DNA of 60,000 nucleotides. Origin: Amphiscolops sp. MND2022. Lineage: Eukaryota. The position numbers and the translations under genes are program-made. This document shows positions 7,938 to 60,000 of the stretch, one piece after another (position 1 is the stretch's first letter; the number at the start of each line of letters is the position of its first letter). The DNA is taken from NCBI GenBank assembly GCA_964187785.1, contig OZ076409.1, positions 9,922,001-9,982,000 on the forward strand, written 5' to 3'. The notes under the pieces are model-generated. The model searched no databases, was not told where the DNA came from, and saw only the letters and a program-made list of their open reading frames with translations.

Positions 7938-7938
<1 letters not shown>

Positions 7939-7940
7939 CA

Positions 7941-8614: not shown

Positions 8615-8619
8615 ACATA

Positions 8620-12326: not shown

Positions 12327-12480
12327 TGTGTCTCTGGGAGTTTGGGCTATTGTGACTCGGGGTGTTTGGGCTACTGTATCTCTGGGAGATTGGGCTACTC
12401 TGTCTCTGGGAGATTGGGCTATGGTGTCTCTGGGAGATTGGGCTACTGTGTCTCTGGGATTTTGGGCTATTGTGTCTTTG
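12327..12480 (+). repeat. 24-bp tandem repeat, ~6.4 copies (tgtgtctctgggagattgggctac)
   Basis: Units start at 12327, 12351, 12375, 12399, 12423, 12447, 12471. Confidence 0.92.
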
Positions 12481-19371: not shown

Positions 19372-20105
19372 TGTAGCGATTACCTATCGAGTACACGATT
19401 TCGAAAATTTTGATGAAAATTTCGTTCAAGGGACTATATCCCCTGTACTGAAAAGTCATATTCCGCTGGACGGCAGCGTGTCTTCATCCAAGTACCTGCC
19501 CACAGAATTGAAGAGAATTGGAGCAAAAGACTCAAGAGAGACCCCAACCGAACGAGAAGACTGCAGAAAAACACGGCCGCTGTCAGAAAAAGACTCAAAT
19601 TTCTGTCAAAACGGACTGAACTTTGTTCTAGCCAGTGCTTTCTTCAGCGAAGCGTTACAAGACGCTGTGATTACCGAAAATGAGTCAATTGGCTTGACCA
19701 AGCATCCGTGCTTGTGTCCCCGGCTAATTGCTGCCTCAAAAGTGCTAATTATGTAGTAATTTTCGTATTTTCTTGTTGTAACAGCTCGTGAGCTACTCAC
19801 TTCGATCTCCTGTGCAATTTCGAAAAAACTTGATTTTTCCTTTCCACAACTTGCATTTTTTAAAGGCTGTCTAAGTGTTGGTTTCGAAGAAAAAGCGTAA
19901 TGCGCACTACTGATAGCAATTACAGACTGGATCAGGCCGGCGAGCACTTCTTAAGAAGCGGAATCCTCCTCTGACGGGACATTTCTTACCCGAAGGAGGC
20001 AAAATGGACTCATGGCCATGGGCGCCTGTCCCGGGCAAATACCCATGCCATGTGTTCCTCCTGCTCTTATGGTTACGGCGACAATGGTGAGAGCTTGTCG
20101 TTACA
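19372..20105 (+). repeat. Gypsy 5' LTR (734 bp)
   Basis: tgtagcga...tcgttaca inverted termini; distal ~565 bp differ from the 3' copy at only ~2 positions seen by eye. Confidence 0.9.
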
Positions 20106-20121
20106 TGGAGAACACATTTTA

Positions 20122-20138
20122 TGGCGACCACAGAGGGA
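20122..20138 (+). promoter_or_regulatory. Primer-binding site, tRNA-Arg-like (tggcgaccacagaggga)
   Basis: TGGCGACCAC is complementary to the ...GTGGTCGCCA 3' end of eukaryotic tRNA-Arg(TCG)-type tRNAs; lies 16 nt after the LTR. Confidence 0.6.
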
Positions 20139-31949: not shown

Positions 31950-32298
31950 TAATTTTCGTATTTTCTTGTTGTAACAGCTCGTGAGCTACTCACTTCGATC
32001 TCCTGTGCAATTTCGAAAAAACTTGATTTTTCCTTTCCACCACTTGCATTTTTTAAAGGCTGTCTAAGTGTTGGTTTCGAAGAAAAAGCGTAATGCGCAC
32101 TACTGATAGCAATTACAGACTGGATCAGGCCGGCGAGCACTTCTTAAGAAGCGGAATCCTCCTCTGACGGGACATTTCTTACCCGAAGGAGGCAAAATGG
32201 ACTCATGGCCATGGGCGCCTGTCCCGGGCAAATACCCATGCCATGTGTTCCTCCTGCTCTTATGGTTACGGCGACAATGGTGAGAGCTTGTCGTTACA
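31733..32298 (+). repeat. Gypsy 3' LTR, missing the first ~167 bp present in the 5' LTR
   Basis: Matches the 5' LTR from agaccccaaccgaacg to tcgttaca; no purine-rich PPT upstream. Confidence 0.88.
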
Positions 32299-33147: not shown

Positions 33148-36100
33148 TGTTCGGTTATTCCCCCATCACCCATTTATTGAATGAATGTATAGAACTAATT
33201 TATGTATCTTGAATACTAATGTAACTAATTTATATTCAATACCATACTTTCTATTGTAAAGCACTTATTTGATTTATATCGAACACAACGCTAAGAACGT
33301 CTTCGCCATCAAGTTGTCTCCGCCCTAAGACCTAATACTGCAGCTCTGTAAGCTTCTTCCAGTTTTTCTTGAAATACTCCATTCAAAGAAAATAACCATC
33401 TCAACCGTACCTAAAATCAGGTATTTTAACTGCGGCAACCATTGATTTCCCTTCTTTCCTTCCCCTTTTTTCTACAACCTTTCTGCACTAACCATTTCTT
33501 TGGTTCAATATTTCCATATAGATACAAAATCAACTCTTCTGTACTAATCACAAAAAGTGATTCGACTCTTTGTCGGTCCAATAAAAAACCTTCCACTGTA
33601 CTAATCACAAAAAAGTGGTTCGACCCCGTAGTCGGTACGTCCTTTTCTTGTGTACTAATCACATCAAAGTGATTCAGCTACGTGCTGGTACACATTTTCT
33701 GTACTAATTATATCAAAGTGATTCAGCTTTGAGCTGATGCAACATTTCTGTACTAAACAAGTTGGTTCGAGTTTCGTCGGTACATTTTGTGCAAATCACT
33801 TGTTTCGACATTTTGGCAGTACACCTTTTTCTGTACTAACCAAAAACTCCTTTTTGATTCAACCTTTCTGTTGGTACAACTCAATTTTTTTAAATTTTTT
33901 TTTGCCTTCTTTAAATAATTCTGCTTGTTTTTAATTGACTTTATTGTATCTTTTTCGTCTGCTTGCAATCGTTTTTCTCGTCGTCGACAAATTTATGATT
34001 GATTTCCCAATAATTTTTTTCACCTAATGCTCAAAGTTTTTAACTAAAACTCTTGCAACAATGTTTCTTTTTGTCTCCTACATTTTTGCTGTCCTTGTTC
34101 TTCCGATGCTTCTTGTTGAAAAAATATTCATCACTGCTTTCAACTGAGTTGTTCCTATTCACCTAAACTCTTCCCCTTCTCCCCATTCTAAAGTTCCTAC
34201 AATTTCCAATACTCCATCGTTTTACCTTTAACCTCTCCTGATTTGACCACTTCTGCATCCGATATTTTACCTATCTCTTTTCAAATGTTTATGTTTCTCT
34301 TTCGCTTAAGCTCTACCTCTTTCTGGTTCTTCCACAACTCATTCTCATTGCTACCATATTTGTATATAAATGAATATTTAATATTCTCATCTCGTACCAT
34401 ATTCAATCAAGTTACCACCACCTCCGTCAAAACCTTTATCTCCATTTTCATCCACTTCCTCCTGAACCACGTATAGATCCTGAAGTTCTCCTAGACCTTT
34501 TCAGGAGTTTTTAGCCCGCATCGCCATTCATGTTGACTGATCACCCTCCTACTTTACTCCCACTTCCTCTTGTTTTTCCAGATTTTCATTCTCGCATTTC
34601 ATGCGACACCAGCCAAATTTTAACTAGTCTCCCCAGAAAACCTATCCACAACTTAACAGTTCGTCTTTGTTTTGAAACCGACCCGGAAGTTTTTTACACT
34701 ATACCACTCATACGTGAACACCACGACTCCTATCTTTATTATATTGACATCATTCTCTAGTAGAAACTACTGATGTACCTCCTTTCAATTCAACTGAAAA
34801 ATTTCGTAATAATAAATACCCACCAAATTTTACATTCCTATGGCTCATGTTTTCAACCCATTTCTCAAAATCGTCTCAGAAAAAAAACAACGTTTTACCT
34901 AAAAATGCTCTCACCCATCTGCTATCAAAGCACTCCTTCAAAAGGAATCTTTTTTCGATCTTCCCAATATTGAACAACTTTGCTCTATTGAAAACAACCC
35001 CCATCACTGGTTTTCCACTGATCGCCTCTAAACTCCACATTTCTAATACCAATTTGTTTCAAAATCTTACTCAAAACGCACGAACTAAAGAACAAATAAG
35101 TCGAATGTAGTCTCTTTTTCTGCGGAAGTTTTTAACCCTAATTCCATTCATTTGGGATTCTAAATTCCAAGACGCTTGCGGTAACTTCACCTCTCAATTG
35201 TTTGAAGATGAACTCCTCTTTTTTATTGCTACCTCTGAAAAAAAATCCTTGTTTCTATGATCTCCATGATTTTCTTGTCACTTATTTTGACTAACTCACA
35301 TAACAATCTTAGTTTCAACAAAAGTCCTGATATTCCTTCTGCTGTTAGACCATTTGCAAAATATACTCCTCAAACAGTTTCTTTAGATACCACTTCTGAT
35401 ATTTCTCTCGAAACCATTCCCTCTACTTCTAATATTTCTCTCCAAACCATCCCTTCTGCCTCTAACGTTTTGGTCCAAACTCACAATATTGGTTATCCTC
35501 CTCCAAATCTTGATCCACCTCCAGCGCCTTCTTTAACCAACCGCATAACAACTCAATCCTCAACCTCTCACTCGCCATACCGATAAAACACTTCTTCTAA
35601 TTCTCCCCACCACCTAATATCATTACTGCTCAACCATCAACTTCTCAAATGCATCCAAATCTTCCTCCATTCCCTCTTTCTTTTCCTCATGTAATCAATA
35701 CTCAACCTCAAGCTCTCGCTCTTCAAACACACTTACCCACTTCTCATTCTTATCACCCTAAACCTTCATCATCATTGCCTATCACTCAAAACCCTTCTTC
35801 AACACTTCAAACTTCTTCTTTCCCTGCTCCTAACTTTTATGATCCTTACGCTTCACTTCATCCCAGTTTTCAAAAATACACTTCCTACTCTCTTCAACCA
35901 CCTTCGCTTCCTCCTAACCCCTATCACCACCTCATGCTACCTACCCTTTTAATCCACATTCTTCTCAATCTCCTCAACCTGTTTTCTCAATGACCCCTTC
36001 TGTTCCATTTGCTACTCTCTCTGACCCTATTAAACTTTTTGATGTCTTGGATCAAACGTATCCTCCCAAAAAGTTTTTAGATCACCTCAGTGCAAGTTGC

Positions 36101-37210
36101 GCGTGTAATATTTCAACTTGGACCTCAACCTCTTGATATACAATCATATATAACCTGGCACTCAAGTCGACTGTCTCTCATTTAATGTACCCTTACTGGA
36201 ACTGCCTCTAATTGGTATGATCGAGGCCCTCAAAAAAGATGACGAGAATGTTAAACACCTTGCTTTAAAAGCTGAAACTCTCGTTAAACAAAGTTGGTAC
36301 AATGAATAACCAACCACAATAAACCTCATATTTAATGAAAGTTATACTCTTGGTCTTCCAAAAAACTAAACACCTTGCCAATAAACGTCAAGTCAAACAT
36401 TTTTCTAGTTTACTTTAACCTTCAATTCCTTTCCACTCTCTTGTTAATATGGTTGACTCTGAAGATATCACACGTTAAAAACTTAAAATACAAGAATTTT
36501 CTGTCGAAATTAACACTCTCCCAGACACTTTTAGCAAAAATGCCACTGTGACAGATAACTCCATTGAACCTCCACAAATACAAGTTGTAGATCCTAAAAA
36601 ATCAAACTAAATCTCAATTTAAAAAATCTTGCTCTTTTTGCCATAAAAAGAATCATTCGGTCTTCACTTGATATCGTAGACTCAATATGCTTAGAGAATC
36701 TGAAACCCAATCTAAATCACCTACTCATCTACCTTTTACAAACATTTCGAAACACCATTCAATAAATATAACAACCAAAGTCCTCGTTATTGTAGTAGAA
36801 GTAATATTAACCACAATCGCAAACTCTCGTTCAAACTCTCGCTCAAAGTATTCTCATAACCACTCCTCTCATAACCATCCTCCATATTATAATCGTAATC
36901 GATCTCGTTATGATCAATATTATAGAAAATCTCCTTCCCCAAAATATTTTGTATCTCACTCATACTACAATTCAACATCTTCCCGTAGCTCAAAAAGTTT
37001 TATTCTGATTATCGCGAACGCTCCGCGAGTTATAATAACTACTCTTTCCGACGCAAAAATTACCATATCGCTCTCCTTCAAACCACGTTTTGATCACTAC
37101 TGAAGTCGATCTCGCTCTAGTTCACAAAATTATCTTAATCACCAATACAAACCCGCAGTTAATTTCACTCAACAACCCCCTCACTTATTCATCAATCTGC
37201 TATCACATAA
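33148..37210 (+). mobile_element. Decayed 5' half of a pyrimidine-rich LTR retroelement (short putative LTR, leader, gag remnants)
   Basis: Putative 138-bp LTR tgttcg...cgaaca (33148-33285); gag-like LSDPIKLFD..YPPKKFL, LTGTASNWYDR (~36000-36225); Ser/Arg-rich RSNSRSK tail; same C/T-rich sense strand as the 52.5-60 kb element. Confidence 0.65.
33480..33845 (+). repeat. Cluster of ~7 short tgtactaa(t/c) repeats in the element leader
   Basis: tgtactaatcaca-like motifs spaced ~50-80 bp apart. Confidence 0.7.
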
Positions 37211-38348: not shown

Positions 38349-40824
38349 TTAACAAAGCAGGCGAAGAGCTAGTGGCTTCAGCTGTGTCATGACGAGCTCC
38401 GATTGCTGAATTGGGCCTTTTTCTAAGTCCAGACCACAAAAATAGTCGATGAATCGCATCACAGAAGCTGTTGACCTCTGAAGCCTGTCCAAGTTTGAGA
38501 AACGGTCAACGTCAATCACCGGTCGATGACTTTTGGGTTGCACATGAAAAATGCCAGCCGCACGCTTGCTTCGCTCTGGAGGTGCATCAGTTGGAAGAAT
38601 CGGTTGTTTAGGCCATAGTGTTTCATCATGCGCTAGCCATTCGGGACTTTTCAACCACAGGTTGAAATCCAGAAGGTCTGTCGCGGTTTTCCCTCGTGGG
38701 TTCTGTTCTGAAGGAACATGCTTCCATTGTGAAGGGGCAACCTGTTCTTGAATTAGAGACACCCGATTAGCAACAAAACAACCCCAGGTTCCTCGGTGAT
38801 TCGATAACCAAGATAACACTAATGTGGAATCCGTCCAGGCAATGACACGAGAAAAGTTGACGCTGAGCTTAGATAGGGCTAAGGTAGTTGACTGCACCAA
38901 CTTTGCAGCTAGAACTGCACCGGAGAGCTCCAGGCGAGGTAGGCTGAGAGTCTTGATGGGAACCACCCGTGACTTGGCAGTAAGTAGACTGACAAAGTAG
39001 GAGTTGTCTGTGGATGAAACACGAGAGTAGATAAACGCACTGAATGCCGTCTGAGAGACATCGCAGAACACATGCAGCTCCACTGTAGAGTGTGCAGTGA
39101 ATGAGAAAAACAAACATCTGGGTAAAGAAACGCTTCAGATGGCGTGAAGATCCTTTGGAGCTGAGAGCCAAGTTTTGAGGATTGCTGCGGGAACCTCGTC
39201 CTCCCATTCCACTCCAGTTATCCAAGTCCGTTGCACCAAGACCTTGAAAGTGATTACAAGAGGAGAAAGTCATCCCAGTGGATCATATAGCTTAGCAATG
39301 TCCGAAAGCATTTGACGTTTAGTCTTGATTGATTCGGGATCGACGTCGTTCACACATCCTGCAGAGGAAGTCATCGAACCCCCAGACCTTTCGTTTGGTA
39401 GTTGCCGTCATGAAATTTGTGCGCCTTGAGTGCTTCCTGGAGGTCAAGAGGTAGATGCTGGATCGCTGCCGGAATATTGGAAGACCATTTGCGAAAGCAG
39501 AAGCCAGCAGATTATAGGGTTTTTTGAAGAGCGTCCTGAAGTTGGATTGCGTCTTCGAGTGAGGAGGTGACAGAAATCATGTCATCTACCTCGAAGTCAC
39601 GCAGGATCACTGGGCTTGCTAGCGGATGATGATGATCATGGGCAGGAGATAGAAGAGCCTTGACTACTTGGTGAGCAGAAGGTTGAATGCCGAACGTGAC
39701 GCGGGTCATGACCTCAATTGGTTCACCAGGCTGATCGCGCCATAGAAGTCGATGGTAGTCCCTGCTGCTTCGCTTCAAACACACTTGACGGTACATCCTT
39801 TCCACATCAGCGCAGAGAGCTATTGTGTGAAAACGAAACCTAGGCAAAATATCAGTTAAATTGTCTTGAAGTGTATGACTAGTCAGAAGTGAGGCTTTGA
39901 GGGACCAGCCAGACGAAGCCCTTTCGGAGCCGTCGAAGACTATGCGAAGCTTCTGAGTTGAACTATCCTTCATCGCATTGTGATGGGGAAGGTAGAAAAC
40001 ATGATGTGGTGGTTTGTCCAGATCCTCAAATGGGACTCGTTCCATGTGACCAGCATCCTTGTATCCATTGATGTAGTCAGTGTAGTCTTGCTTGAGACCA
40101 GTAGACTAGAGTCGTCTGGCCAGTGCCAGAAAGCGTCGCTTCGCCTGATTGAAGCTTTCACGAATTGGAGGTGCATCTGAGTTGATGCGCCCATCAGCTG
40201 TCCTATACGTCGTCCGAGTGAAGAAGTCCTCACAACGCCGCTCTTCAGGGGTGAATTGGTTGGACCCAGTACCAGGGACTTCCTCGATTTCCCAGAAGCG
40301 AGTCAGAAGCTGATCGACGGAGGAGAAATCACTTGTTGAATGTAGCGCGATGTGAAGTGATTGCTCAGAGCGAGAGTCAGAAGTTGTAGGTGGGTGGCCT
40401 GATTGAACCAATTTGGGGTTGAGTGTACCGCAGAGAACCGAACCGCATATGGTTTCCTAGGCTGAAACTTGTTAGAAAGAACAATTGATTCTTATAGATC
40501 AATACCAATGAGGAGATCGTTTGGACCAGGTGTGTGGAACATCGGATCGACCATTTGCAAGCCATCTAATTGAGTGAGTTCAGCAGAACTGATGGGCTGG
40601 AAAGGGAGATCATAGGTGATCGTTTTGAGAACCAGAGCAGTTGTACTAAGTAGTTGCTCGTTTTAGGGGCAGTAGAGGTCCAGGGTGACCACGGCTGAGG
40701 GACGAGGCATGCGCGTGCCCGCTATCCCGGTGTAGGTCACAGCTGTCTGCTTTGTGAGCAGACCGAGCCGCTGGGCTGCCTGGGTGGTCATGACGTTCAC
40801 CGTTGAGCAAGAATCAAGAAGTGC
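38349..40824 (-). mobile_element. BEL/Pao pol remnant (protease, RT, RNase H), truncated before integrase
   Basis: ALLDSCS; FYLPHH, KLRIVFDGS, ADVERMYRQV, RVTFG, EVDDMIS; LHVFCD, SLPRLELSGA, WTDST, WKHVPSEQNP. Confidence 0.92.
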
Positions 40825-42062
40825 TTCTTTCTTGAAAGCAACCAATATGTCTCGGAGCGTTGTTTCCGTATTGGTTTTGAATGTCTGCCAAAATTTAATT
40901 GCGTCGTCTCTCAAGAGAAAATAGTTCAGCTTCTTGTCTTCAGTGAGTTTGTGAGAGTGTGGCCTGAGGTGATTTAGTAGCAGATGTTGAAATTCGTTGT
41001 AATTGTCTCTATTTCTTTTGAACAGCGGTACTTGTGTTCGGAGAAATTTCGGTTGGGTGATCGTGTTGCTCATCGTGTTGCAAAGGTGATGGATTTCGAT
41101 CATCACGTCAGTCAGTAGTGGGGCGTCGACATCGCTTCTGGGAAATTCATTTGGTGGAGTTGTTCGTGAGCCTGATGGTTGTTGGTTCTAGGCTCCTGTC
41201 ACCAAGTCAGAATGGGTGTCAGTATCATTTGACAACATATTTACTCCGTTCCCTTCTCTCAGATTAGAGGATTTACTATCGGTAAGGGTTAAATACAAAA
41301 GTGGTCAGTTCATTAATTTGTCGGTTCATCTCTGAAAACCTCCGTTCTATAGCATCGTTTTTCATGTTTTATTTCTACTCAATATGTCGCTGTTGTCGAA
41401 TTCGAACATTTGTGCCCTTGATAAGACTTCTGGCACACTTTGGTCATTTTCGCTATCACTCATTGCTTCAGGTACTATTAGAATATTTCTATTAGCTTGA
41501 GATCTGATTACTACCCTATGAACGAAACGATAGAGTATTGAAGGTTTTTTTGTCATACAGCAGATGAAAATGGAATAATCGCGAAGTTTAATATTGACAA
41601 TTGTCAAGGTATGATTGCAACTGTCAGGTATGGTTTACTAAATCGTACTGGTGGTCAATCTATCACCAACGCTTTTCTGGTTCCAGCGTCTTAGCACCTG
41701 TTGATACTGAACAATGGTATCGCTTATTTTAATTGGTGTTAATTAGCGCACTTAGCTTCAAAGTGAAAGGTATATGACCGTGAGTTACAGTCATCAAGGC
41801 AATCGATGAACGCAATTTTTAGCACAAGACGGAGTGAATGACTGTGTGTCTCAGTCGCTAAGGCAATCGATCATTGTAATTATCGCCATTATGTGTGAAA
41901 CATTTCTATACTTTCTGGTCGTCAAGGCAACCTCATGTTCAAAATGTTCCTTCTGATAAGCATCATGACTGTAAATACCGGCAATGAAACGAAAATGTGC
42001 AGGTTGATATCTAGGAACTACATGGTAATACGATGAAGGTTGAACAGATGTTTATGATTACT
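40825..42062 (-). mobile_element. Gypsy LTR + PBS + gag 5' fragment, running up to the assembly gap
   Basis: PBS-like tggtgacagg at ~41204-41195 (minus); gag TQVPLFKRNRDNYNEFQHLLLNHLRPH...LNYFLLRDDAIKFWQT. Confidence 0.72.
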
Positions 42063-44129: not shown

Positions 44130-46039
44130 TGTGTTGACCGTGATTCGGGAGTAAATCACTTGGTCCAACTAGTCTATACCTATATTCCGTGTTTTCCGCA
44201 TCCTCGTCGTCGGGACCATGACGCACGTTGTTAGACGGTCTCTCTGTCAGTGTATCGATTTTAGAAGTCAGGTTCTCTATCATCTTCAGAATTTCGCGCT
44301 GTCCGACTTCCGCGTCTTTGATTCTTTTACTCACAGATTTTTCTATCTTTTCAGATAATTCCGTAAAATCCTTATCAGACAAACTAGCAGCGTTTTCAGA
44401 TCTCATGCTAGAAGATTCAGGTTCGTCTAAAGAGTTCACAGGAGAATCCCTTCTGGCTTTTCTTTTGGAGCTACGTTCTGGCATCTTACTTAGGCTTGAT
44501 AATTCTTGATTTTCTTTTTAAGGGAATTAGAGCGAGTTCTCAAGTGACAAAGTGTGACGTTTCAAGATTTTTAATTATCGTTGAACGAAAGACAATTGTT
44601 TCGCAAAATAACAAAATTCAACTAAAAATGGCTTCTAGCTCGCATTGTATTTATACTTTTCATCCCGGAAATCAGGGAAAAGACACGAACATACTTCACA
44701 TTTTGTTCAGTCCGGCGTCCGTCCGAGGCAAGGAAACAGGAAGTTCAGTTCCGCTTTGTCGAACTCAGGCTTTCAGCTTGTTCATGCTTTCCGAAGAAAG
44801 GCACGCGTCCACTTCCGGCCTGAGTTGCGACTCCGCTTCCCTTCGCCTCCAATTTCCCGCCTCTTCAGGAGGCCGAACTGAAAAAAATTATCAGCGGCAC
44901 GCGCAATGAGTCACTGAATAAGATTGATTAACTGCACAAATTTGAGAAAAAATGATGACAACCAATTTTCCTTTACAAATATTTCCCTAAATTAAATAAA
45001 TCAGCAACAATTTGAATGAAATTTAACACAGATTACACATTAGGCTTCAAATGAAAGAGTAGAATTGCTTCTACAGTATTTGTAGCTCTGATTTTGGTTA
45101 ATAACACAAAGCCTGGTCCCAGGCCATAGTCCGGGACGGACAAACATGTTCAGTGGGTAGAGCAACTATTAATTATAAACAGCATCAGATATATTGTTCG
45201 GGAAGGTATTTAATGCAATTGAACGACAACAGATTCAGGGAACAGGATATACATGTTATTAACACTTGGTTTAATATTCGGTACTAAATCTTTGGTTCAG
45301 GTCGCGGTTCAGGCCTGTTTATAGATTAATCAACATTTACATGTAAAAGAACGTTATATGTAATATTTTAAACTACAATATAGTTTAAGATCATAGATAA
45401 TAATCTCTAGATTCATTTTGAGACAAAGTTACATGGTAGCATCATCATCTTTCACTTTCGTGATTGATTTATTGTAATTAATTCTCAGGCCGCATCCCAG
45501 GCCGTGGTACGTGATGTTCTATTAAGTTAGCACAGTAATCTCAATTGTTGGTATATTTGCATTCGTATTGTTAATAAATCACTGCACTAGACATTAGTTC
45601 ATTTACATGTATTCACTATAGCGCGCGCTTGCATATTAATCCGCTGAGGTTACAATTCTCAGGCTGCCTGCCAGGCCGCCGCTTCAGTGCGAGTATTTGA
45701 GGCCGGCTGCCAGGCCTCAGTTCCGCCTTCGATTTCTCAGTTCATTCACTGAGCGGTGCTATTCGATTATTATTATTACATAGTATTGTATTATTATTAA
45801 CTGCACAAATAGCTCCGTTATTCCGTAAGTACGTATTTATATAAGTGTACAATATTATGATAATAATACTAGTATGCATATATTTATTAATTTAACTTCA
45901 AATTTATATTGTTTAGCTCCTTTGTTTCTGATTGTTTGTCCGCTGTCTATTTCCTCTTCTTTTGTTCTTTTTCCAATTTATTCTTCGAAGACTGGGTTGT
46001 GTTTGTTGCAATACTCGCAGCTCAGTCGGGGCTGTGACA
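44130..46039 (-). mobile_element. Solo LTR (1910 bp, Gypsy type) with 5-bp TSD cctgc
   Basis: TG...CA termini on both strands; cctgc at 44125-44129 and 46040-46044; gag-like N-terminal ORF MPERSSKRKARR...QREILKMIENL inside. Confidence 0.88.
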
Positions 46040-46178
46040 CCTGCTCAATTGTTTGTGTACAATAATTACCAGCGAAAACGAACTTTACATTCATCTCCAA
46101 CGATTGTTCTACCTCAATTGTTACAATAAAAACTCAAAATATTGGAAAACCAGATATTTTCTTCAGAAGACGGATATT

Positions 46179-47096
46179 ATGATTGGGATTTTCATCGTTT
46201 GTGTATCATTCACACTTCTCGCAGAAACAGCGGCTGGAAATTCCAATACGTTTCGTTCCACCGCATTCGAAGACCCAATAAATGAGAAACGTTTGGACGC
46301 AGGAAAAGTTATTGGAACACGGCAAGAATCATCGCGTACAAAATGCGCACTTGCTTGTTCTAAAAATGATGACTGCCTTTCTTTCGCTTTCTGCGGGGAG
46401 AACTCCTGCGAATTGTACAACGAAGACATTTTTTCAACGGAGTATGGAGAGAACATTATAGAAGAAGATTTAAGCTGCAAATATTTTGGGATGAAGAAGA
46501 AATCTAAGCCAATATGCCAGCAAGATGGTTTGTTTGCAGACATACAGAGTGACGATGGAAACAGTGAGTTTTGTCCAATAAGTGGGAAGCGAGTTGATAC
46601 AGAGTGGGGCCAATGGGGAGGGGAAGAAACAGTATACAACCCTCCTGATTGGAAGTTAGTAAACAGGAGAGAGATTGTTATTGAAGCAGCCCATGGGGGA
46701 CTTCTTGACTTGGGAGATTCTGAGCGAGCTTTAGAATGGATCAAGTTTGTAGATCAAGAGATGACATGGGAGGATGCAAAAGCAAATTGCGAAACTTTGG
46801 GTGGAACTTTGTTCTCCAGAGTAGATGGAACTGAGGAACAGTTAGATTTCTTGCTACAGAAAATGAATGGAAAGAGACACTGGTTGGGGATCTACACTGA
46901 GGATCACGAGGTCTGGAAATCAGTGACAGGTGACGTCGTTGAACCAACTTCACTGTATTGGAAAAGTGGTCAACCAAATAATTTTTCAGGTGATCAAAAG
47001 TATGTTGCTAACCGTACATGGAAAACCGAATTGATCATTGGTTTGGCAGATGACGAAAGTTCGAGTGTCAAGGGATCAGTGTGCGACATGCTGTGA
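46179..47096 (+). CDS. Secreted PAN/Apple + C-type lectin domain protein (paralog 2), uninterrupted ORF, 305 aa
   Basis: Signal peptide MIGIFIVCVSFTLLA; same PAN and CTLD motifs as paralog 1; WKSGQPNN loop. Confidence 0.87.
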   Translation: MIGIFIVCVSFTLLAETAAGNSNTFRSTAFEDPINEKRLDAGKVIGTRQESSRTKCALACSKNDDCLSFAFCGENSCELYNEDIFSTEYGENIIEEDLSCKYFGMKKKSKPICQQDGLFADIQSDDGNSEFCPISGKRVDTEWGQWGGEETVYNPPDWKLVNRREIVIEAAHGGLLDLGDSERALEWIKFVDQEMTWEDAKANCETLGGTLFSRVDGTEEQLDFLLQKMNGKRHWLGIYTEDHEVWKSVTGDVVEPTSLYWKSGQPNNFSGDQKYVANRTWKTELIIGLADDESSSVKGSVCDML

Positions 47097-47374: not shown

Positions 47375-47960
47375 TTTTTAGTCGGCGTTTTCGAAGAAAT
47401 TCCACGACTCTTACAGTGGCTAATTTTTTTCGTCAGTTCAACGCGATCCGTCCACTTTTTTGTTCATTTGTTCAACTTCTTCGACAAATAAATTTCAGGC
47501 TTTCAGAAGCAGGAGAGCGTGGGTTCGAGTCTCGCACTAAATCACAACTTTTTTATTGCTTTCGAATGTAGAGGGGAGACCAAACTTTGGGTGTTTTCAG
47601 GACTTTGTGACTTTTTTCCGAAAAAATTTTGAATTCTATCAAAAGGTACCCCTTAAATTGTTTGAAGTTGTCGGTTTATAAAAAAGTTTATTGAGCCTAA
47701 AGGGTCTGATTTAGGGTTTTCGGCATTGTGCAACTTTTTTATCAAATACTTTTTTGAAACATTTAATTTTTTTGAAAAGTCAATTAGTTTTTTTGATGCT
47801 TCCAGTGCCAGAAAAAAGCTGTCTTCGAGTTTCGGGGAAATCTCTTTCAGGATTTTTTGGCACTGTGTGATAAATAAAAAAAATCTTAATTGCTTGAGTT
47901 TCTCTTTGAATAGTATCGAGCCTTAGAAATGACGCCGACTTGGGTCGTTCCCGGCTTGTT
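47375..47960 (-). repeat. Dispersed non-autonomous element with asymmetric subterminal inverted repeats (Helentron/HINE-like)
   Basis: agtcggcg (47380-47387) / cgccgact (47933-47940) inverted pair, 3' hairpin potential, T-rich flanks, other copies in the window. Confidence 0.55.
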
Positions 47961-49990
47961 ATATGATCTAAGATGATATTTTTTTCACCGCCATTGCAAT
48001 GCGAATTCAATTCGTATACAGCACCTAATCACAAAACAATTCCTCGAAACTGATGCTTGAAAAGCCTCACTGCTCTGAAAATCACAGGCAAAACATATAC
48101 TCTGTGTTGTACAAAACCAAAGATAATTGTTTCAATAAATAAAATATTCATTTATTGTCAATATATTTTTTCAATTGTCAATATCATATATGACATAAGG
48201 TTGATAAAGTTCTCACGCTACTGAGAAGAAAACACTGAATCGAAGGATTTACATTACGTTTTAAGTTGTTTTGAAATTTTGTTGACACTTATTTGCACTT
48301 TTAAGACTTCTAATGTTTTATGCTATCAGTTGTTTGATTCATTCAAAAATTTGAATGAATCAAATGCCATTACAATTCCACTTATGTATGACGTAATGTC
48401 TCCTTTCGCTTCGTATAGACAATTATGTGTATTGAATGAAGTCAACTATCAACATAAAGTGTGTCGTCGCCTTTTTTACGTGGACCTACTTTTAGTCGTG
48501 TTGTAACCCAAAATGATTCTAATATGATGCTAATTTTAGAAACAAAACACCCATGTTTTTGAGTGTCATGCCCTGTGGAGTATATATACACAGACTAAAC
48601 TCAAAACGACACCCTCTAATGATAACCTTTGTATCATTCTTTTGGTATTTAGCTGTGACTATTGTTTTCACGTTTCAATAAAAAACCTGTGAACTCCCGA
48701 CGTTTTTCTTATGTTGGAAGCCCAATTTCTCAACGACAATTTTGTTCTTTAAATGCCCTCAACTACAAAGCAGAAAGCTAGAGAACAAGATCACGTCAAT
48801 CAGACTCGTTGACAGATTTGAAAGATATGAACATACAACGGTCTAGAAAAAGACTCACAAGCGGACCTAATATCCAATGGGCGCCGAGAAAGCAATAGCT
48901 GAAACATTAGAAAATAGATCTATGATGAACTTTAAATTTATTGCTTGAGTTTCTCTTTGAATAATATCGAGCCTTAGAAATGACGCCGACTTGGGTCGTT
49001 CCCGGCTTGTTATATGATCTAAGATGATATTTTTTTCACCGCCATTGCAATCCGAATTCAATTCGTATACAGCACCTAATCACAAAACAATTCCTCGAAA
49101 CTGATGCTTGAAAAGCCTCACTGCTCTGAAAATCACAGGCAAAACATATACTCTGTGTTGTACAAAACCAAAGATAATTGTTTCAATAAATAAAATATTC
49201 ATTTATTGTCAATATATTTTTTCAATTGTCAATATCATATATCACATGAGGTTGTTAAAGTTCTCCCGCTACAGAGAAGAAAACACTGAATCGAAGGATT
49301 TACATTACGTTTTAGGTTGTTTTGAATTTTTGTTGACACTTATTTGCACTTTTAAGACTTCTAATGTTTTATGCTATCAGTTGTTTGATTCATTCAAAAA
49401 TTTGAATGAATCAAATGCCATTACAATTCCACTTATGTATGACGTAATGTCTCCTTTCGCTTCGTATAGACAATTATGTGTATTGAATGAAGTCAACTAT
49501 CAACATAAAGTGTGTCGTCGCCTTTTTTACGTGGACCTACTTTTAGTCGTGTTGTAACCCAAAATGATTCTAATATGATGCTAATTTTAGAAACAAAACA
49601 CCCATGTTTTTGAGTGTCATGCCCTGTGGAGTATATATACACAGACTAAACTCAAAACGACACCCTCTAATGATAACCTTTGTATCATTCTTTTGGTATT
49701 TAGCTGTGACTATTGTTTTCACGTTTCAATAAATAACCTGTGAACTCCCGACGTTTTTCTTATGTTGGAAGCCCAATTTCTCAACGACAATTTTGTTCTT
49801 TAAAGGCCCTCAACTACAAAGCAGAAAGCTAGAGAACAAGATCACGTCAATCAGACTCGTTGACAGATTTGAAAGATATGAACATACAACGGTCTAGAAA
49901 AAGACTCACAAGCGGACCTAATATCCAATGGGCGCCGAGAAAGCAATAGCTGAAACATTAGAAAATAGATCTATGATGAACTTTAAATTT
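47889..49990 (+). repeat. Head-to-tail tandem duplication, 2 x 1051 bp, near-identical
   Basis: 47889-48939 matches 48940-49990 with few substitutions. Confidence 0.95.
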
Positions 49991-51701: not shown

Positions 51702-52451
51702 CAGGGACCGTAGTTTTATGCGCAACATTTTGCCAAATTATAGGCTCAGTTATGCGCTAAATTATGGCAGAATATGCGGCAAAGTATGCAATTTTAGAGG
51801 CTCTTGCTCACTTTCTGGAAAACATGCGCCCGTTCGCAATAATGTAGTTTGGTTCTTTTTAACAAAAGAAACTGGCATTTATGTACAGAAACATCAACTC
51901 TTTAATTGTCTTTAGGCCTAAATTATGTCTGTCGTCGGTCAAAAGTTTATGGAAGTAACTAAACACTCTTTCTACTGCGGCAGAAGAGCAGACTGCAAAG
52001 CCATAAGTTTCAGCAATTTTTGCCAAGATGGGCAGCTTGTTAGACATTGAAACCCAAAAGTCACGAACTTGCTGTAGCTCTTCTTGTATGGACAAATCTG
52101 CACTGTAGTTTAATTGGAATTCTCTGACGAGAATACGGTAACCAAATTTTTCTGCTGTAGGTACTGTGTCGAAGTCAGGAACATGCTTGAGGTCCGCATT
52201 GTCGGGAAAACTGAGGCTCTTGACAGGATGATTCAATATCTTTGAGAAAATTTCGAGCAGGGTGGGAACCATGATTTTCCGAGAAGTATTTCTTGATTTT
52301 TTTGTAGGCATTTGTTGACGCCCGATTAACCTGCTGGGCTAACTTCTGCATGTGGTCGCTGGAAAAAGTCTGTCATAATTTCTGTGATCTGGGTTACAGA
52401 ATCTGTGGAAAGGGACATCTGGGCAGTAGGACGAATCCCGTTATAATGAGC
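51702..52451 (-). mobile_element. hAT DNA transposon 3' remnant (transposase dimerization domain plus terminus), cut by an LTR element
   Basis: FW....LPILAKIA......SSAAVERVFS (hATC motif); caggg terminus at 51702 with tatgc subterminal repeats. Confidence 0.8.
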
Positions 52452-52632
52452 TGTTAAAGACTTGTTGGATGTGTGACTTTATTTCATTTAGGGAATACAT
52501 AAGAAGTTCTTACTAAGTCTTAACAGAATACCGTCTAGCTAGCTATACTTATTTCAATGAACTGAGTAGGACTATTCAGACTGAGATCTCAGAATTCTTT
52601 CTCTTCGAGGATGAGAGTACTGGTTGATTACA
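52452..52632 (-). repeat. Putative 3' LTR (181 bp)
   Basis: Minus strand tgtaatc...tttaaca with aataaa ~25 nt before the end; abuts the interrupted hAT coding sequence; partner LTR not in window. Confidence 0.55.
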
Positions 52633-53958
52633 ACATTCGAGTTACTCTGATTATACAGATTTAGTTAGTACATCAATCAATAATGAGATTAAATAGACTT
52701 CAAATAATTATAGGATGAAGTACAAGAGATTACATTTATAATGAAATATCAGCATCTCGATAATGAGGTATTAACTTCTGAGTAGAGTGACATCTGTCAT
52801 GCTATTAAGTCATGAAGTTTATTTATATTTTTACAAATTTAAGATTCTTGATGTCATGCATCACGACATCACAATCGACCGGGTTTTTGAAAAATTAAAA
52901 TAAATCCATATGTTCTGAAGGTTTGGGTTTTTTACTAAAGGTGTTCAATGGTTCATGTTATATTCGAGTACCATACATAAGGAGTGAGAACAACCTAAGA
53001 CGGTTTGAACTTCTTAGTAATTTGACGGTTCACATTGGTGCAACGTTTTTCAGTCAAGAAATTTTGATTCACAGTGTTGTTCAAGTTATTGTTTGACAAC
53101 CTTGTGGTAAGCTCCATCGGCTTTGATCAAAAAAATACATGAGTTCTCCAAATGAGTAGTCGCATGAAAACTTTTTGGATTGAAGAACATTTGTAAAAGT
53201 TGTCAATGAGGTGTGAACAAACATTGGCGGGTTGTGAACAAAGTGTGAAGAAGTCTAGAAGTGGCAAAGGTTGAGTTCATTTTTCACTCAAAAGAAAGAT
53301 TGGATGATTGAAAAAGGATTCAAACTTCAAATTTTTGTTCAAATTCCTAGAGTAAAACATTTGTTCTATAAGAACAGGTCTTGTACTATGAAAAACGAAG
53401 AAGGACAAGAATATATTCAGTAAAATAATATGTAATATATGGTGAATTTTCGTATTTTGCACAAAGTGTTGGTATTATATGATTATATAGCAACAACGAA
53501 TATAGGGTTTCGATGAATTAAGCACTAAATGAAGTATAGTGGGCTAATTTTGACTAAAATATTAAGAATTATAATAGAGTATACATTGGTTATAATTAGT
53601 TAATAGATTATTAACAGGGAATATTTTGAATATAAGTATTTTTGAGAGTATAGATTGAGATTATACAGTGATGAAATAAGATTATAGATTAAGAATATAC
53701 AGTGATGAAGTTTTGTAAAAGTTTGAAGTTTGAAGTAAAGTGAAGTGGTGTAGTCATCTGACGAAGAAGCAGAGAGGACCACGAAGTGACGATGTCTGGA
53801 GAGACAGCGAAGAAGAGTAGCAGCGACGCAAGAGAAGAAGTGGCGATGTGGAGAGGTTGAGAAGCAGGAAGTGAGAGATGCATGTTGACAATGATGACAT
53901 CTATGAAGCCATGAAAGAAAGCAACAGCATCAGAGTGATGAGAAGTGAAGAGAATAGG

Positions 53959-54435
53959 TTAGTTGGAATTATCAGAAGTGTAATTTTTTGGCCAAAATGT
54001 GTGTTTTGACGGAGGGTGGACTTGGTGGGTCTCAAGATTGTAGCGCTGCAATTGTTGTGTGTACCCAAAGTCTAAGAGTACAGCATTGAAGGCGTCAATA
54101 GCGTCATCCAATGCTACTTGAAAACAGTTGTCCTTCGTAGTAAACGCGGAGTTGAGGACGAACACAGTGTCAGAAGTAATTTCACAAATGGCGATTTTTG
54201 GTCCATTAACATGAACTCGATAATACTGTTCAAAGGTGATCTGCTTTTTCTTGATCTGGCAGACATTGTAGAGAACCTTAAGAAAGGAACGACGAGTAGG
54301 GAGAGTGACGTTTCCTTTATTTATTTCCAGAGACATTTTGTAGGCCATAGTATGAAAAATGGCAGCTTTTAGGCTATGGACTTTAGATTCAGTTGAAGTA
54401 ACGAGTTGTTTTATTTCAGACTTTTGCGGAGCCAT
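53959..54435 (-). CDS. Accessory ORF of the env element, 158 aa, unknown function
   Basis: ATG-initiated intact ORF (MAPQKSEIKQ...) with globular-looking composition. Confidence 0.65.
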   Translation of the reverse strand: MAPQKSEIKQLVTSTESKVHSLKAAIFHTMAYKMSLEINKGNVTLPTRRSFLKVLYNVCQIKKKQITFEQYYRVHVNGPKIAICEITSDTVFVLNSAFTTKDNCFQVALDDAIDAFNAVLLDFGYTQQLQRYNLETHQVHPPSKHTFWPKNYTSDNSN

Positions 54436-55059
54436 TGGATGAAGAATGAAAAGTGAAGTCTTGATAGAGTTTTCTGGAATTGGCAGAGACTGAAAGGAGT
54501 CCAGAAGGAGGAAGAAGAATAGAAGTTTCTAAAACAAAAGGAGTCTGAGATTTGAAGACCAAATGCCAAACGTTTTTGTTACATAACTTGGTGCTATAAT
54601 ATGGATGTTGTTTTTGTATTATAGTTGAAAAGAGATTCTGAAAAAGTGCTAGAAGTGAACAAGAGTACAATAGATGAATGAGTTTTTGTGCTACAGATGT
54701 TGTCAAAATTTTATGAAAAATAAATTAGGGATGCTACCTGTAGTTTGGAATGAAAATGTTCAAGAGAGAAAGGTGTCCAAAAATGTCCAATATCGGAGGA
54801 AAACTAAAGAAATTTGTATTACCTGAGAGACGATTTAGTGGATATTAAGAGTATTAAAAAGAGTATTCATAGATTCAAGCGCAGATTGGATTGCTTGAGA
54901 GGATTGTGTTATGCGCTGAGAATCGAGATCTAGAGTCTTAAGGAGTTGTGAAGTCCTGTTATGGCAATGTATGAGATGATTAAGAGTGGTGATTGGAGAA
55001 TCGGACGGATTGCGTATATGGATCTAGCTTTTGGGTGAGATCCTTAAGAGTACGATTAT

Positions 55060-56259
55060 TTAATATAGTCGCAAGTTTTTCACTGGTAGTTTGTTTGATG
55101 GGAGATTTCGTAGGAGTTTTATGATCATTATAAGAACGTTGTTCATTTTGAACTGCGAGTTGTTGTTCAGCTTGAACCATTGAACCATGTATGAGATGAC
55201 TTTCGCGGCTATGAACAAAAGTTCGTTGTAAGAATAGGATTGTTTATAGAGAGCGGTATAATGTGAGGTATCTTTGTCGTCTAATGGTGTAGAAACAAGA
55301 TGTTTGATGACTGTCAAAGGTTTGACAATCTGAGTGGGAGTGTTGCAGGGCAACAGGAAGTCATCAAAATGAATAAGGTACTCTTGAGGTACAATGAGAG
55401 GACGAGAAGTATCATTATGAGGAAGCAAACAAAAATATTGTTTGATTGGGTCAAAGTTTCGAAGGTAGCCGGTTATTTTGGAGCGATCAATAGTGTACAA
55501 ATTTGTCATGGTGAAAGGAGAAGTATATTTATAGTTTGCAAATATGTAGTTTTTAGGTTTTGAGTGTTGAAGAAAGCGGGTATACGTTAAATGATGAGTG
55601 GCTTTTTGTGCTGTAGATAGAAAAGATGGATCGTTTTCATCCGTTTTTAGATCATAGATCGATGGGCGAAGGAAATTGAATTGGAGAGAAAGTATTTTGA
55701 TTCCATTTTCAAGCCAATATTGATAGGGTGCCATAATTTTAGAAGCAATGGACGTGAAGAAATCTTGATTTTTATCATACAATTTGCAGGTGTAGTCAGT
55801 AGGATGCATATATAGAGAAGTCAGTTGTGATTTGAAGGAGAAGCGGTTTGTAGAAAGTATTGGTACAAGATAGTCATCACGGGTCGTAGAGAGTTGTAGT
55901 TTTGTAGGTATTATTGGTGGATAGATTGGTGATGAAAGAAATGCAGGATCTTTCATGATTTCATATTTCCTTTTTGTTGGTGGAGGAGTATCAGGAGATT
56001 GATCATGATCCGAAGGTGTTTTACTTTTTAAAGGAAGATTTTGGTGTTCCATTTGATCAGGATTGGGATCATCAGATGTTTCTTCAGTATCAAGAAAGAA
56101 AACAGGAGAGCCATTTGAAAGAGGTTTAGTAATAAGATCAGCAGTGTGCACTTCAAGTTGATTTTGAAGATCAATTTGTTCTTGAGTTACTTGAGAAGTC
56201 ATGTTGTGAAACTCTAGTTGTGCTTGGGTCATATTAGGAAGCGATTTTTGGAAGTACAA
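55060..56259 (-). CDS. Accessory ORF of the env element, ~390 aa, probably continuing after a frameshift (54980-55180 frame); unknown function
   Basis: Long open frame directly after env; acidic/Pro-rich N-terminus with PPPTKRK (NLS-like), then aromatic-rich globular region. Confidence 0.6.
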   Translation of the reverse strand: MYFQKSLPNMTQAQLEFHNMTSQVTQEQIDLQNQLEVHTADLITKPLSNGSPVFFLDTEETSDDPNPDQMEHQNLPLKSKTPSDHDQSPDTPPPTKRKYEIMKDPAFLSSPIYPPIIPTKLQLSTTRDDYLVPILSTNRFSFKSQLTSLYMHPTDYTCKLYDKNQDFFTSIASKIMAPYQYWLENGIKILSLQFNFLRPSIYDLKTDENDPSFLSTAQKATHHLTYTRFLQHSKPKNYIFANYKYTSPFTMTNLYTIDRSKITGYLRNFDPIKQYFCLLPHNDTSRPLIVPQEYLIHFDDFLLPCNTPTQIVKPLTVIKHLVSTPLDDKDTSHYTALYKQSYSYNELLFIAAKVISYMVQWFKLNNNSQFKMNNVLIMIIKLLRNLPSNKLPVKNLRLY

Positions 56260-56475: not shown

Positions 56476-59214
56476 CTATGTTGGAGGAGTGAAAAAGTCA
56501 GAGTGATCAGTGTTAAAAGATGGCGGAGGAAAAAAGTAATTAGTTTTTGAATATATGAGGACAGGAGTGTCCATCTCACAACTGACAGGTGATGTAGTGT
56601 AATCATTAGGATTTGTGGTGACAGGAGAATAGTGTGGTAAGGATGATTGAATATTAGTTTTGGAGTGAACATTATGAGGTGTTTGATTGGAATATTGCTT
56701 TCGTTTTGGAAGGAATTTAAAATGAGTCACTTTGGAAATCCGATTGGGTCGTTTTGTATAAAAAGGTGGTAGTGAAGTAATACCAGTTGAATTTGAAGAA
56801 ATACCAGTTGTATCATTAGGATTATAGGAAGATTCATCTAATGGGTTGTCAGTAATGTTTGACATTTGATGTGAACTTTTAGAGGATGATTCAGAACGAA
56901 CATTTTTTAAGTCATGTATCATGTCAGCTGTAAGAATATTGAGAAAACCATGTGCAATAGATTTGAGAATTGTAATATTTTGTTTAAGGTTGTACTTTAT
57001 GGAAATGGTTTTGTATAATTCAACAATGAGAGTTAACATTGTTTGTATAAAAAGATATGTGGAAAAGTAAATTCCACATTGTGTCAAAATGTAACATGGG
57101 TATCCAAATAAAGCAATAAAGGCATCAGAGAACCATGTAGGAGTAAAAAGGGGAGTAAGGGTAATTATTCGATCATGAAGTCCAATTCGAAGTGTAATAT
57201 ATGGGTTACCATGTGGAGAATCTGCATCATAATCAGGTGTATTAGAGGAAATAAAGGAATAACTAAGAGCTTTTCCTAAAAGTTGAAAAGTAGTATCAGA
57301 GTGTTTAGAAAATAAGATTCTGTTCCAAAATTGATTTAGTTCAGCATTGGAGTATTTACTAGCATCTTGAGCTGTAAAAGTATTAGGTCGTATTGTAGTT
57401 TTAATTTGGGAAGGAGTAAACATAAGTGGAGGTTTTCGTTTAATAGGTTCAGGGCCAAGAATATAAAAGTCTTGGTCATCAGAATCAGGGTCAAGTTCGA
57501 TAATGTTGTTTGGGTTATTATCACATGTAATAGGAGTAGCATAGTCATATGTTTGTCTTGTAATAGGATCAACGTACATAAGGGTGTCTTTAAAATGAAT
57601 AGGAATTCGATCGAAACAACGATCGGCAATGTATAAAGGAGACAAAAAGGGAAAGTCATATAGCCAAGCAGTAGATCCTTCAACATAGAGAAAGTTACTG
57701 CGATTTCCTGTTAAAAGGAAGCCAGCAAGTTGAGGATTTTGTACTGACATTGTAAGTATTGTAAGGAGTTGGTTTCGTTCTAATTCACATACTGTATGAG
57801 GAGTATTAAGTTCTTGGACAGTCATAGAGCGAAATACATGATTGATGGTGTAATCTATTTTAGTATTTATATGGGCATCATAGTCTATTGTAGCGAAGTT
57901 GTTAGAAACGTTCAATGCAGGAAAGATGTATTTGTTATTAGAGTTGTTTAGTACAATTTTTCCAGAAATATATTCATTGATTATAGAAGTGGGATTTCGT
58001 TGTCCTGCATGCATGTTGAATCCTTCAGTATAAGTAACAAAAAGGTCAGAATATTGAATGGAATATAGAAGTTCAGGTTTTCTGCAAAAGGTATGTGCAT
58101 TAGGAAAGACTTCAAAACGAGAAAGGTTTGGGTGATGTGGAGTTTCAGTATGAGGAGCACGGATATAAGGATAATAAGTACCCTTGATACCATCAAAGGA
58201 GGAAGATTTTTTTGGGGTTGCAGAATGTACAAAGGAATCTGTTTCTATCCAATAACGGTCGTCTATTTTAGTCATGCGTCCAATAAAGTCTTGTAATGTA
58301 AAAATAAGACAAAAGTCGTCACTAAACCATACAAGTGTGAAAGGAGTTTTCGTAGTAGGTTTACAAAAACCATCAGCAAAGTAACATGGGCGAGTATGAC
58401 CATCAATGATCACAACGTTTTGTGTATCATCATATGTAAGTTCGATTTCAGAAATAGCAAGACGCCAACTAACTAAGTTTACTTCAAATTGGTGATGAGC
58501 TGGACAGTTATGATGAGGGTTTCGAAGTGGGTCATATATCCATGTTTTGTCAGCAGGCATATAGGTAAATGTACCTGTATACATTTTGTTGAATTGATAA
58601 ACAGTGAAAGGGGTTTGAAATCGGTTTAATTGTTTTTGAAAGTAGTGGTCTTCTAGAAGTGTAAAAGTTTTGTTATAATTAAGGTTGTTTAATATTTTGT
58701 TATCAGTTCCATTAAGGTGTCTATTAAGATTTTTACATTCAAGAGGATCAAGTGTAATAGGAAGTGGCATTGTATTATGATTTCAAACAGTTCTGTCAAC
58801 ACGTCTAAATTTAACATTACCTTGGAAGCAAACATTTCGTTCTTTTTTAGCATATGCCTCGCATTTTAAAGCGCGAATACGTTTAGCTTTTGCTCTAACG
58901 TAGACTCGGGCTTGGATATTTGCGTGTTGTATGTTGGAAGGAGCTTCAGTACATTGTTTAACATTAAGAAGGGTAAATTGGCGAAGGTTATGTTGTTTTT
59001 CACAATCATAATGAGAGACCATAAGATTTGTTATATTTGGATCATCAGATGGGAGATATTTGTCATCATCAGTTGGGTTAATAGGAATAGAGGATGTAAA
59101 ATAAGAGTTTATGGAAAAGAGGAGGAAGTGAGTTATGAAGAGTATAATGTGTGTATTAAAAGGAAGTTTAATATTTGAGACCAGAGAAAGGATTATAGAA
59201 AACAATTTTGCCAT
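56476..59214 (-). pseudogene. env: Envelope glycoprotein, class III (herpes gB / chuvirus G-like), ~912 codons with one in-frame TGA at 58783-58785
   Basis: Signal peptide; VSHYDC..LLNVKQC; CELERNQLLTILTMSVQNPQLAGFLL; CFDRIPI..YVDPITR..PITC; N-glycosylation sequons; TM ..YILTQCGIYFSTYLFIQTMLTLIV; ORFs 58783-59214 and 56476-58770 are in the same frame (DRTV*NHNTMP). Confidence 0.8.
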
Positions 59215-60000
59215 AAGCTAAATCGTGTAATTCAGGATCACGGTTGAAATCGACTAATATTATTTCAAATGGAGCAGGAGTTGTTTTGTGTTCAATCTTT
59301 GCGACGTGAAATATAGGATGAGGATTAAGACCTTGAAATTTAACTTTGACTTCAAATTTCAATTTTAGATTAGGAGTTTGAAGGCGTTTAAGTTCAGTTT
59401 CTTTTCGTTTATTTGAAAGAGAGTTATTTGTGGTAATGAATCGTTCTGCAAGAATTGGAAAACGAGGATCGTTTTGAGGATCGTATATAGTGATTCCGTC
59501 TACACGTATAGGGTAATCTGCAAAATTAGGAGTGGGTGGTCTTGATTGGTCAAAAGTATAATATTCAGGAATTCGTTTGTGAGGAGCAACAGGTGTAGGT
59601 ACTAAGACTTCAGAGAAAAGATTGCCAGATAAATATGCAGTTTGGACGTCAGAAGAGAGTAGGGAAGCTGTGTCTAGTCCAGAAGTAAGATAGGATTGTG
59701 GAACAAAGTCTGAAGAGTGTGCTGTATCAGAGGATAGAGGTTGAGCGTGTTGTCTAAGAAGACGTAATGCAGAATTGCTAGAAAGTGCTGAAAAATTAAG
59801 AGTTGATGAATCAGTTGCACTTAGACGTCTATTTGGAAGAGGTCTAAGGTTGTATCTGTGTTGAGGTATAATTTCAGAACCGGAAGTATCTGATTGTGGT
59901 TGATATTCTGAAGCAGAGTCTATCAAGTTAGAAAGAGAAGTAGAAGGATGTCTGAGTGGTTTAGAAGGAGGGTAAATTTGAGATCGACTAGAAGATTCAG
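59168..60000 (-). CDS. C-terminal part of the ORF upstream of env (probably a Pol tail after integrase); overlaps the env start
   Basis: Ser-rich region with HRYNLRP (the RYxLR motif common in retroelement Pol tails); 47-nt overlap with env. Confidence 0.55.
   Translation of the reverse strand, partial: ESSSRSQIYPPSKPLRHPSTSLSNLIDSASEYQPQSDTSGSEIIPQHRYNLRPLPNRRLSATDSSTLNFSALSSNSALRLLRQHAQPLSSDTAHSSDFVPQSYLTSGLDTASLLSSDVQTAYLSGNLFSEVLVPTPVAPHKRIPEYYTFDQSRPPTPNFADYPIRVDGITIYDPQNDPRFPILAERFITTNNSLSNKRKETELKRLQTPNLKLKFEVKVKFQGLNPHPIFHVAKIEHKTTPAPFEIILVDFNRDPELHDLAYGKIVFYNPFSGLKY

Follow-up and report, generated by a model that had tools for sequence, protein, structure and literature searches.

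Genes and features at the locus

The 60,000-nt stretch of DNA analysed here (hereafter the window) contains just the 3′ part of an element on its minus strand, namely an upstream frame that is cut short, an env gene, two further open reading frames (ORF-A and ORF-B) and a candidate long terminal repeat (LTR) (Table 1). The env frame spans 912 codons and is broken once, by an in-frame TGA that leaves parts of 143 and 768 codons. Since about 54 stops would be expected over this length from base composition, the frame is not a product of chance. The encoded protein has 16 cysteines, a low-complexity tail and two hydrophobic segments with modest Kyte-Doolittle peaks (1.62 for residues 17-41 and 1.56 for residues 713-731), and predicted helices at residues 2-36 and 705-742. 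Seven N-glycosylation sequons lie ahead of the predicted membrane helix, and a motif scan of the env protein for the furin pattern R-x-K/R-R returned no site. We also located in the translation all of the YDC, CxLE and PxTR motifs that a preliminary description, made from the sequence alone, had pointed out.

Table 1 Features of the env-bearing element and its 3′ junction (window coordinates)
Feature	Position	Strand	Basis
Upstream open frame, continuing past the window edge and sharing 47 nt with the start of env; may be the C-terminal tail of pol or a separate gene	59168..60000	-	ORF list, homologs
env gene for a predicted class III (gB/chuvirus-G-like) fusogen, 912 codons, pseudogene here	56476..59214	-	Pfam PF24664, Foldseek, VIA
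In-frame stop (TGA) at env codon 144; the model places it in a loop of low confidence, flanked by predicted strands at 112-129 and 151-153	58783..58785	-	Translation and model
Accessory ORF-A, about 465 aa in relatives, three frames here (start at 56232)	54838..56232	-	Homology to 54838
Accessory ORF-B, 158 aa, open	53959..54435	-	Cluster
Candidate 3′ LTR (tentative) with TG...CA ends and an AATAAA 15 nt from its end	52463..52873	-	Ends and poly(A) signal
hAT transposase relic adjoining the 3′ end of the element	51859..52462	-	Pfam Dimer_Tnp_hAT, E 3.5e-09

No reverse transcriptase (RT) of the env-bearing element lies within the window, whose edge at 60000 cuts the upstream frame. This frame is 68% identical to one database protein (P0080) and 42% identical to another (P0152), both tied to other env families, and it has no match in Pfam. 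None of the pol fragments that we found extends into it, and a comparison with proteins of 484-2000 aa gave one match among 3021 candidates, a deletion chimera.

On the other side of env, and in the same orientation, ORF-A and ORF-B are conserved accessory genes. ORF-A, which carries two frameshifts in the window copy, belongs to a cluster of 12 members and shares about 59% identity with the corresponding stretch of P0043, a copy belonging to another family; it has no match in Pfam, in the atlas or in the loci of relatives. ORF-B matches no Pfam family, and its cluster comprises 55 members, with a length of 158-161 aa in 7 among the 15 listed. Splice acceptors ahead of the start codons found no support, with a strong site at one of the three ORFs (ORF-B) as against 21% of random 150-nt windows. 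The candidate LTR is tentative because the 20 nt upstream hold no purine-rich tract (9/20 purines) and no second repeat occurs in the 60,000-nt window. The frame of the neighbouring hAT relic runs right up to the junction with this candidate LTR, and the relic is likely the target into which the element inserted.

We also observed a variety of other elements in the window. A young ordinary gypsy element at 19539-32158 (+) has terminal repeats that are 100% identical over 126 and 300 nt, and a single frame of 3209 aa with a gag knuckle, PR, RT, RH, IN and a long C-terminal extension. Judging by their motifs, the stretches at 11283-18572 (+) and 38349-41187 (-) are presumably degraded BEL/Pao-like elements, the former with terminal repeats about 90% identical and 6.3 kb apart, while the stretch at 2137-2769 (+) is, on the same footing, presumably a LINE-like RT fragment. 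Two uninterrupted paralogous frames, at 9326-10258 (+) and 46038-47096 (+), are 85% identical over 300 nt, the second with matches to PAN and C-type lectin domains. A duplication of 99% identity and 1051-nt spacing occupies 47886-49236.

A predicted class III fusogen and its family

The sole Pfam family detected in env was Monjiviricetes_fusion (PF24664; E 6.4e-15, 54.6 bits vs. a cut-off of 27), to which relatives of env score 111-130 bits, and a search of the env sequence against the PDB gave one chance match and nothing else. We modelled the protein with AlphaFold2 as a monomer, using an alignment of 145 rows and replacing the stop with X, which yielded a model of mean pLDDT 66 and pTM 0.50 (pLDDT >=70 in 470 of the 912 residues) with long strands at residues 95-129 and 243-262, a helix at 445-489 and a low-confidence tail at 775-912. 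Foldseek searches with this model returned 91 PDB matches at E<=0.001, of which those listed were all herpesvirus gB, with HSV gB the best (E 4.2e-10), as well as 141 matches in BFVD, where the top rows were glycoproteins G of chu-like and other negative-strand RNA viruses and the best match was a chu-like virus G (E 1.5e-26). VIA-align, a method independent of Foldseek, was run against 48,161 chains and filled its nine top places with gB or rhabdovirus G, all at Z below 8 (4.9-7.3), the matched regions being gB domain IV (for PRV gB, Z 7.0 and rmsd 4.8 over 155 residues), the gB PH domain and the PH and fusion domains of rabies G. Whole-chain TM-scores were low (0.12-0.29), as we would expect when a monomer model is set against solved pre- and post-fusion chains that differ in domain arrangement.

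Because three methods agree, without any single strong superposition, the assignment of the env locus as a class III fusogen gene is supported by profile and predicted structure, with trimer formation and fusion activity remaining putative. The preliminary description had proposed just such a gB/chuvirus-like fusogen, distinct from the F-type Env of errantiviruses, and had suggested structure prediction followed by Foldseek as a check; this check placed gB and chu-like G at the top rather than a fold of another class, bearing out the fusogen call and supporting the distinction from F-type Env.

To place env among its homologs, we searched 3421 candidate proteins and obtained 59 matches, 56 of which are 49-93% identical and derive from ENA contigs measuring between 12 kb and 1 Mb. 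A profile search extended this to 3170 representatives at E<=0.001, indicating that this type of env is widespread. The env clusters comprise 603, 1758, 1585 and 424 members, and the window's own env fragment of 764 aa sits in the first of these, where 9 among the 15 members listed (not a random sample) have a length of 908-911 aa. These nine, all uninterrupted, share 97.7-99.7% identity with one another, compared with 90-91% for the window copy, which departs from them at 77 columns where all nine agree (40 of the 77 in residues 40-690, including a one-codon in-frame gap near residue 521). This disparity indicates that the family expanded recently and that the window copy is older and decaying. 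Rearranged copies also occur in the collection, such as one with an internal duplication (P0093, 1323 aa) and two deletion chimeras that join env to a neighbouring ORF (P0043 to ORF-A, P0152 to the upstream frame).

The single in-frame TGA that the preliminary description had given as the only break in the frame is confirmed, but it is accompanied by further damage, namely the 77 private differences, the one-codon gap among them, and the frameshifts in ORF-A. The window copy is thus a pseudogene, barring a mistaken stop. Reading the stop as an error of sequencing or assembly in an otherwise intact env draws on the presence of just one stop across 912 codons and on the fact that long-contig assemblies do carry errors. 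The private differences from nine agreeing relatives and the two frameshifts in ORF-A fit neutral decay of an older copy instead, and these other lesions make such an error unlikely. As for the intact copies that had been anticipated elsewhere in the genome, uninterrupted env genes of the same family do exist in the protein collection, where they may derive from the same genome or from related assemblies.

The carrier element and its reverse transcriptase

We judged the class of the carrier from relatives that are just 23-29% identical in env, as the window copy's own RT, gag and 5′ LTR lie outside the window. Among metagenome contigs, 10 of 103 pattern matches encode relatives of env, and two of these ten (L001 and L008) have a recognisable pol upstream of env in the same orientation. 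The order in L001 is gag, PR-RT-RH, IN with a GPY motif, env, two more ORFs and a PPT followed by TG, while L008 has RT-RH-IN, two ORFs of 295 and 1032 aa, env and one more ORF; in a weak env relative (L010, E 1e-7), gag follows env and no pol precedes it. The gag-pol that the preliminary description had called for upstream in the same orientation is therefore found in relatives, as pol in L001 and L008 and with gag also in L001.

Extra ORFs beside env were seen at 5815-9736 and 13404-15254 of L008, at 9651-12092 of L001, and in L003 and L004, those after env having coiled-coil ends; none of the extra ORFs of these four contigs resembles ORF-A or ORF-B or passes a Pfam cut-off. In viral contigs, none of 94, 38 and 78 pattern matches was confirmed. 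One of five matches in prokaryote genomes was an env fragment of 40% identity (L011) from a bacterial MAG contig of 704 bases, which is most likely mis-binned host DNA.

Using the pols of L001 and L008 as queries, we identified a clade of 33 close proteins scoring 408-1155 bits, separated by a gap from other gypsy-like RTs at 318 bits and below. At close range, the homolog search with this clade matched unnamed records alone, and pol of the clade is plentiful in ENA records of the kind that hold env, with clusters of 415, 303, 77 and 72 members. A contig of 10,639 bases is recorded both for an env relative (P0155) and for a pol of the clade (P0311), and env and pol records further coincide in four contigs of exactly equal size (4 among 110 x 93; 316-796 kb), which would reflect a shared assembly rather than adjacency and may arise by chance within one assembly. 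The window itself contains a heavily frameshifted relic of the same lineage at 34600-37100 (+), covering gag and the region upstream, with piecewise identities of 30-67% to P0315, P0316, P0496 and P0497. We also noted in this relic a strong negative GC skew that mirrors that of the env element.

The nearest solved RT to the clade is that of Ty3 (121 bits for P0327), followed by CaMV (90) and foamy virus (64), with similar results for L001; the ordinary gypsy RT of the same window scores 237 bits against Ty3, about twice as high. The gag of relatives matches Retrotrans_gag/Ty3_capsid, their integrase has a GPY-type end (matches to Integrase_p58_C and SH3_Tf2-1), and the RNase H acidic residues D362, E403 and D430 are invariant (alignment A7). 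We consider it probable, on this evidence, that the carrier is an envelope-carrying Ty3/gypsy (Metaviridae) retroelement, of which the window contains a decayed 3′ part with a predicted class III env and two accessory genes. By analogy with its relatives, the window copy's own pol would belong to the same divergent RT clade.

A rival reading, built on the divergence of the RT, is a separate deep lineage of LTR retroelements, comparable to Troyka or Odin and equipped with a class III env and accessory genes of its own. In a quick RT-RH tree, 10 lineage rows are separated from 18 other gypsy-like rows by about 1.9 changes per site, with SH-aLRT 100 for the branch; the drop in homolog scores from 408 to 318 and then 280 bits points the same way, as do Pfam RVT_1 scores of only 47-80 bits vs. 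125 for the ordinary gypsy element of the window. That tree, however, drew on 10 of the 18 lineage rows and 18 of the 29 others, left out a BEL fragment, was unrooted and held no retroviral, caulimoviral, Troyka or Odin rows, and support for the lineage group stood at 73 once the BEL fragment was included. The long branch may also reflect fast evolution. Among solved RTs, that of Ty3 remains closer to the clade than those of CaMV or foamy virus, and the gag matches, invariant RNase H residues and GPY-type integrase end given above likewise count against a separate lineage. We therefore regard a lineage outside Ty3/gypsy as improbable.

We also weighed whether env might be part of a BEL/Pao element in which Pao captured a chuvirus glycoprotein, a reading in line with the chu-like glycoproteins at the top of the BFVD matches and with the presumed BEL-like relics of the window (so labelled from their motifs). 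Anakin provides a published precedent for such a capture (PMC7642597), but the pol-bearing relatives combine Retrotrans_gag with a Ty3-like RT and have no BEL-type Pfam families, and env forms an ORF of its own with further ORFs behind it, making membership of this kind very unlikely. Scarcely credible either is the view that env, as an RNA-virus glycoprotein endogenised on its own or as a domesticated host gene, happens to sit near transposon debris. This view would fit the lack of an RT beside env in the window and the solo chuvirus glycoproteins reported in PMC7642597, but not the hundreds of near-identical env members, the flanking ORFs that travel with env (as in the deletion chimeras P0043, with ORF-A, and P0152, with the upstream frame) or the absence of relatives from viral contigs (0/94 and 0/38 stretches).

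Proposed working and comparison with known systems

If the carrier is such an envelope-carrying Ty3/gypsy element, Gag and Pol of working copies would package the RNA, reverse-transcribe it and integrate the DNA, and a gB-like Env trimer in the membrane of budding particles would drive fusion with a neighbouring cell. Drosophila errantiviruses move from the soma into the germ line, and by analogy a transfer from soma to germ line seems the most plausible route here. With its env stopped at codon 144, the window copy would make no full Env, and ORF-A in this copy is broken by frameshifts. A model of budding and fusion for env-bearing Ty3/gypsy elements is presented in the discussion of PMC13524379, and Tor Env is described as a membrane glycoprotein in the available part of PMC4402516.

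Possible functions of the extra genes were also examined. Language-model (atlas) matches link ORF-B to dsrm families at 0.83-0.86, with 123-133 of 256 features shared, which is below the tool's own marks. Pfam gave no dsrm match, a PDB profile search and two fold searches (with a poor model of pLDDT 46) gave no support for a dsRBD, and hhalign against 28 RNase III dsRBDs scored no better than shuffles (31/60 as high). We accordingly treat dsRNA binding by ORF-B as a weak lead that is doubtful at best. A Pol of the divergent RT clade that lies outside the window (P0309, from the 415-member cluster) carries a TARG1/OARD1-type macrodomain at residues 179-319, just upstream of the RT, which Pfam overlooked and which matches human C6orf130 at E 2.6e-22.

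Taken at their widest, these observations could describe an unnamed, deep-branching and "complex" lineage of enveloped retroelements in aquatic invertebrates with counter-defence accessory genes, in which ORF-B would act as a dsRNA-binding silencing suppressor, the macrodomain in the Pol of a sister family would reverse ADP-ribosylation, and hundreds of young copies would spread between cells by means of the gB-like envelope. We rate this combined picture as improbable. A narrow literature search found no report of silencing suppressors encoded by LTR elements. If the extra genes did counter small-RNA or ADP-ribosylation defences, invertebrate retroelements would have arrived independently at the design of a complex retrovirus, with a class III fusogen, and would offer a high-copy system for asking whether elements with gB-type env move between cells.

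Several known systems share features with this lineage. The best structural and profile match of env is glycoprotein G of Jingchuvirales/Monjiviricetes (PF24664), although identity in structural alignments is 11-14% and the gene is encoded here by a retroelement rather than by a negative-strand RNA virus. Anakin, described in the available text of Dezordi et al. 2020 (PMC7642597) as a mosquito BEL/Pao element with a chuvirus glycoprotein, likewise houses a chuvirus-like protein of gB fold within an LTR element, but differs from the relatives studied here in its class and its mosquito hosts; membership in Anakin was rejected for these relatives, which match Retrotrans_gag/Ty3_capsid and the Ty3 RT. 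Bdelloid LTR retrotransposons have also captured ORFs beyond gag-pol, according to the part of Rodriguez et al. 2017 (PMC5408684) available to us, but pair a paramyxovirus F-like env with GDSL esterase or DEDDy exonuclease ORFs, whereas ORF-A and ORF-B match no Pfam family.

Troyka and Odin resemble the lineage in being deep-branching by RT among LTR retroelements of aquatic animals, and the available texts (Kojima, PMC12440569, for Troyka; PMC9040795 for Odin) separate both from gypsy on the RT phylogeny. Troyka is described there as having no env, CG termini, no GPY motif and a longer zinc knuckle (CX2CX8-10HX4C), and Odin as having no env, a degenerate tether and a second RNase H. Troyka had been raised by a CG near 52439 and was rejected, since env is present and L001 has a GPY motif and a CX2CX4HX4C knuckle. 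With respect to Odin, the first RNase H of relatives keeps its acidic residues, and a Pfam scan found no second RNase H.

The closest comparison is with the Ty3/gypsy elements carrying an HSV/gB-type ENV (termed "ancient errantiviruses") that Chary and Hayashi (eLife 2026, PMC13524379) describe across animals, in a survey whose available text treats movement between cells as inferred, not tested. A literature search found no env-bearing elements from acoels, a phylum that does not appear in the available text of this survey, and 12 short motifs of our lineage were not found in its supplements (1512 elements), where cells over 400 characters were covered in part and absence is not implied. Intact gag, pol and env ORFs, by which gB-type errantiviruses are recognised, are not what the window copy retains (stop in env, two frameshifts in ORF-A), which says nothing of its family.

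As far as the available text goes, the survey's elements share with our env relatives the order gag-pol-env, with the env family described here a multi-copy, recently expanded state, and with env itself a predicted gB-like ectodomain of class III, set between a hydrophobic segment at the N-terminus and a putative transmembrane helix; the furin site, absent from env here, is not always kept in them either. They differ in that one or two conserved ORFs follow env here and extra frames lie between pol and env in L008 (a term search of the survey's available text gave no mention of accessory ORFs), and in that our RT sits on a very long branch. The pairing of gypsy with a gB-type env is thus already known, and the window copy is mostly one more example of it. 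What is less ordinary is the divergent RT clade and the conserved accessory genes, neither of which the preliminary description had brought out, and the TARG1 macrodomain of a sister family. The value of the lineage lies in at least four env families, each with hundreds of database members, in its RT clade and in the conserved extra genes around env.
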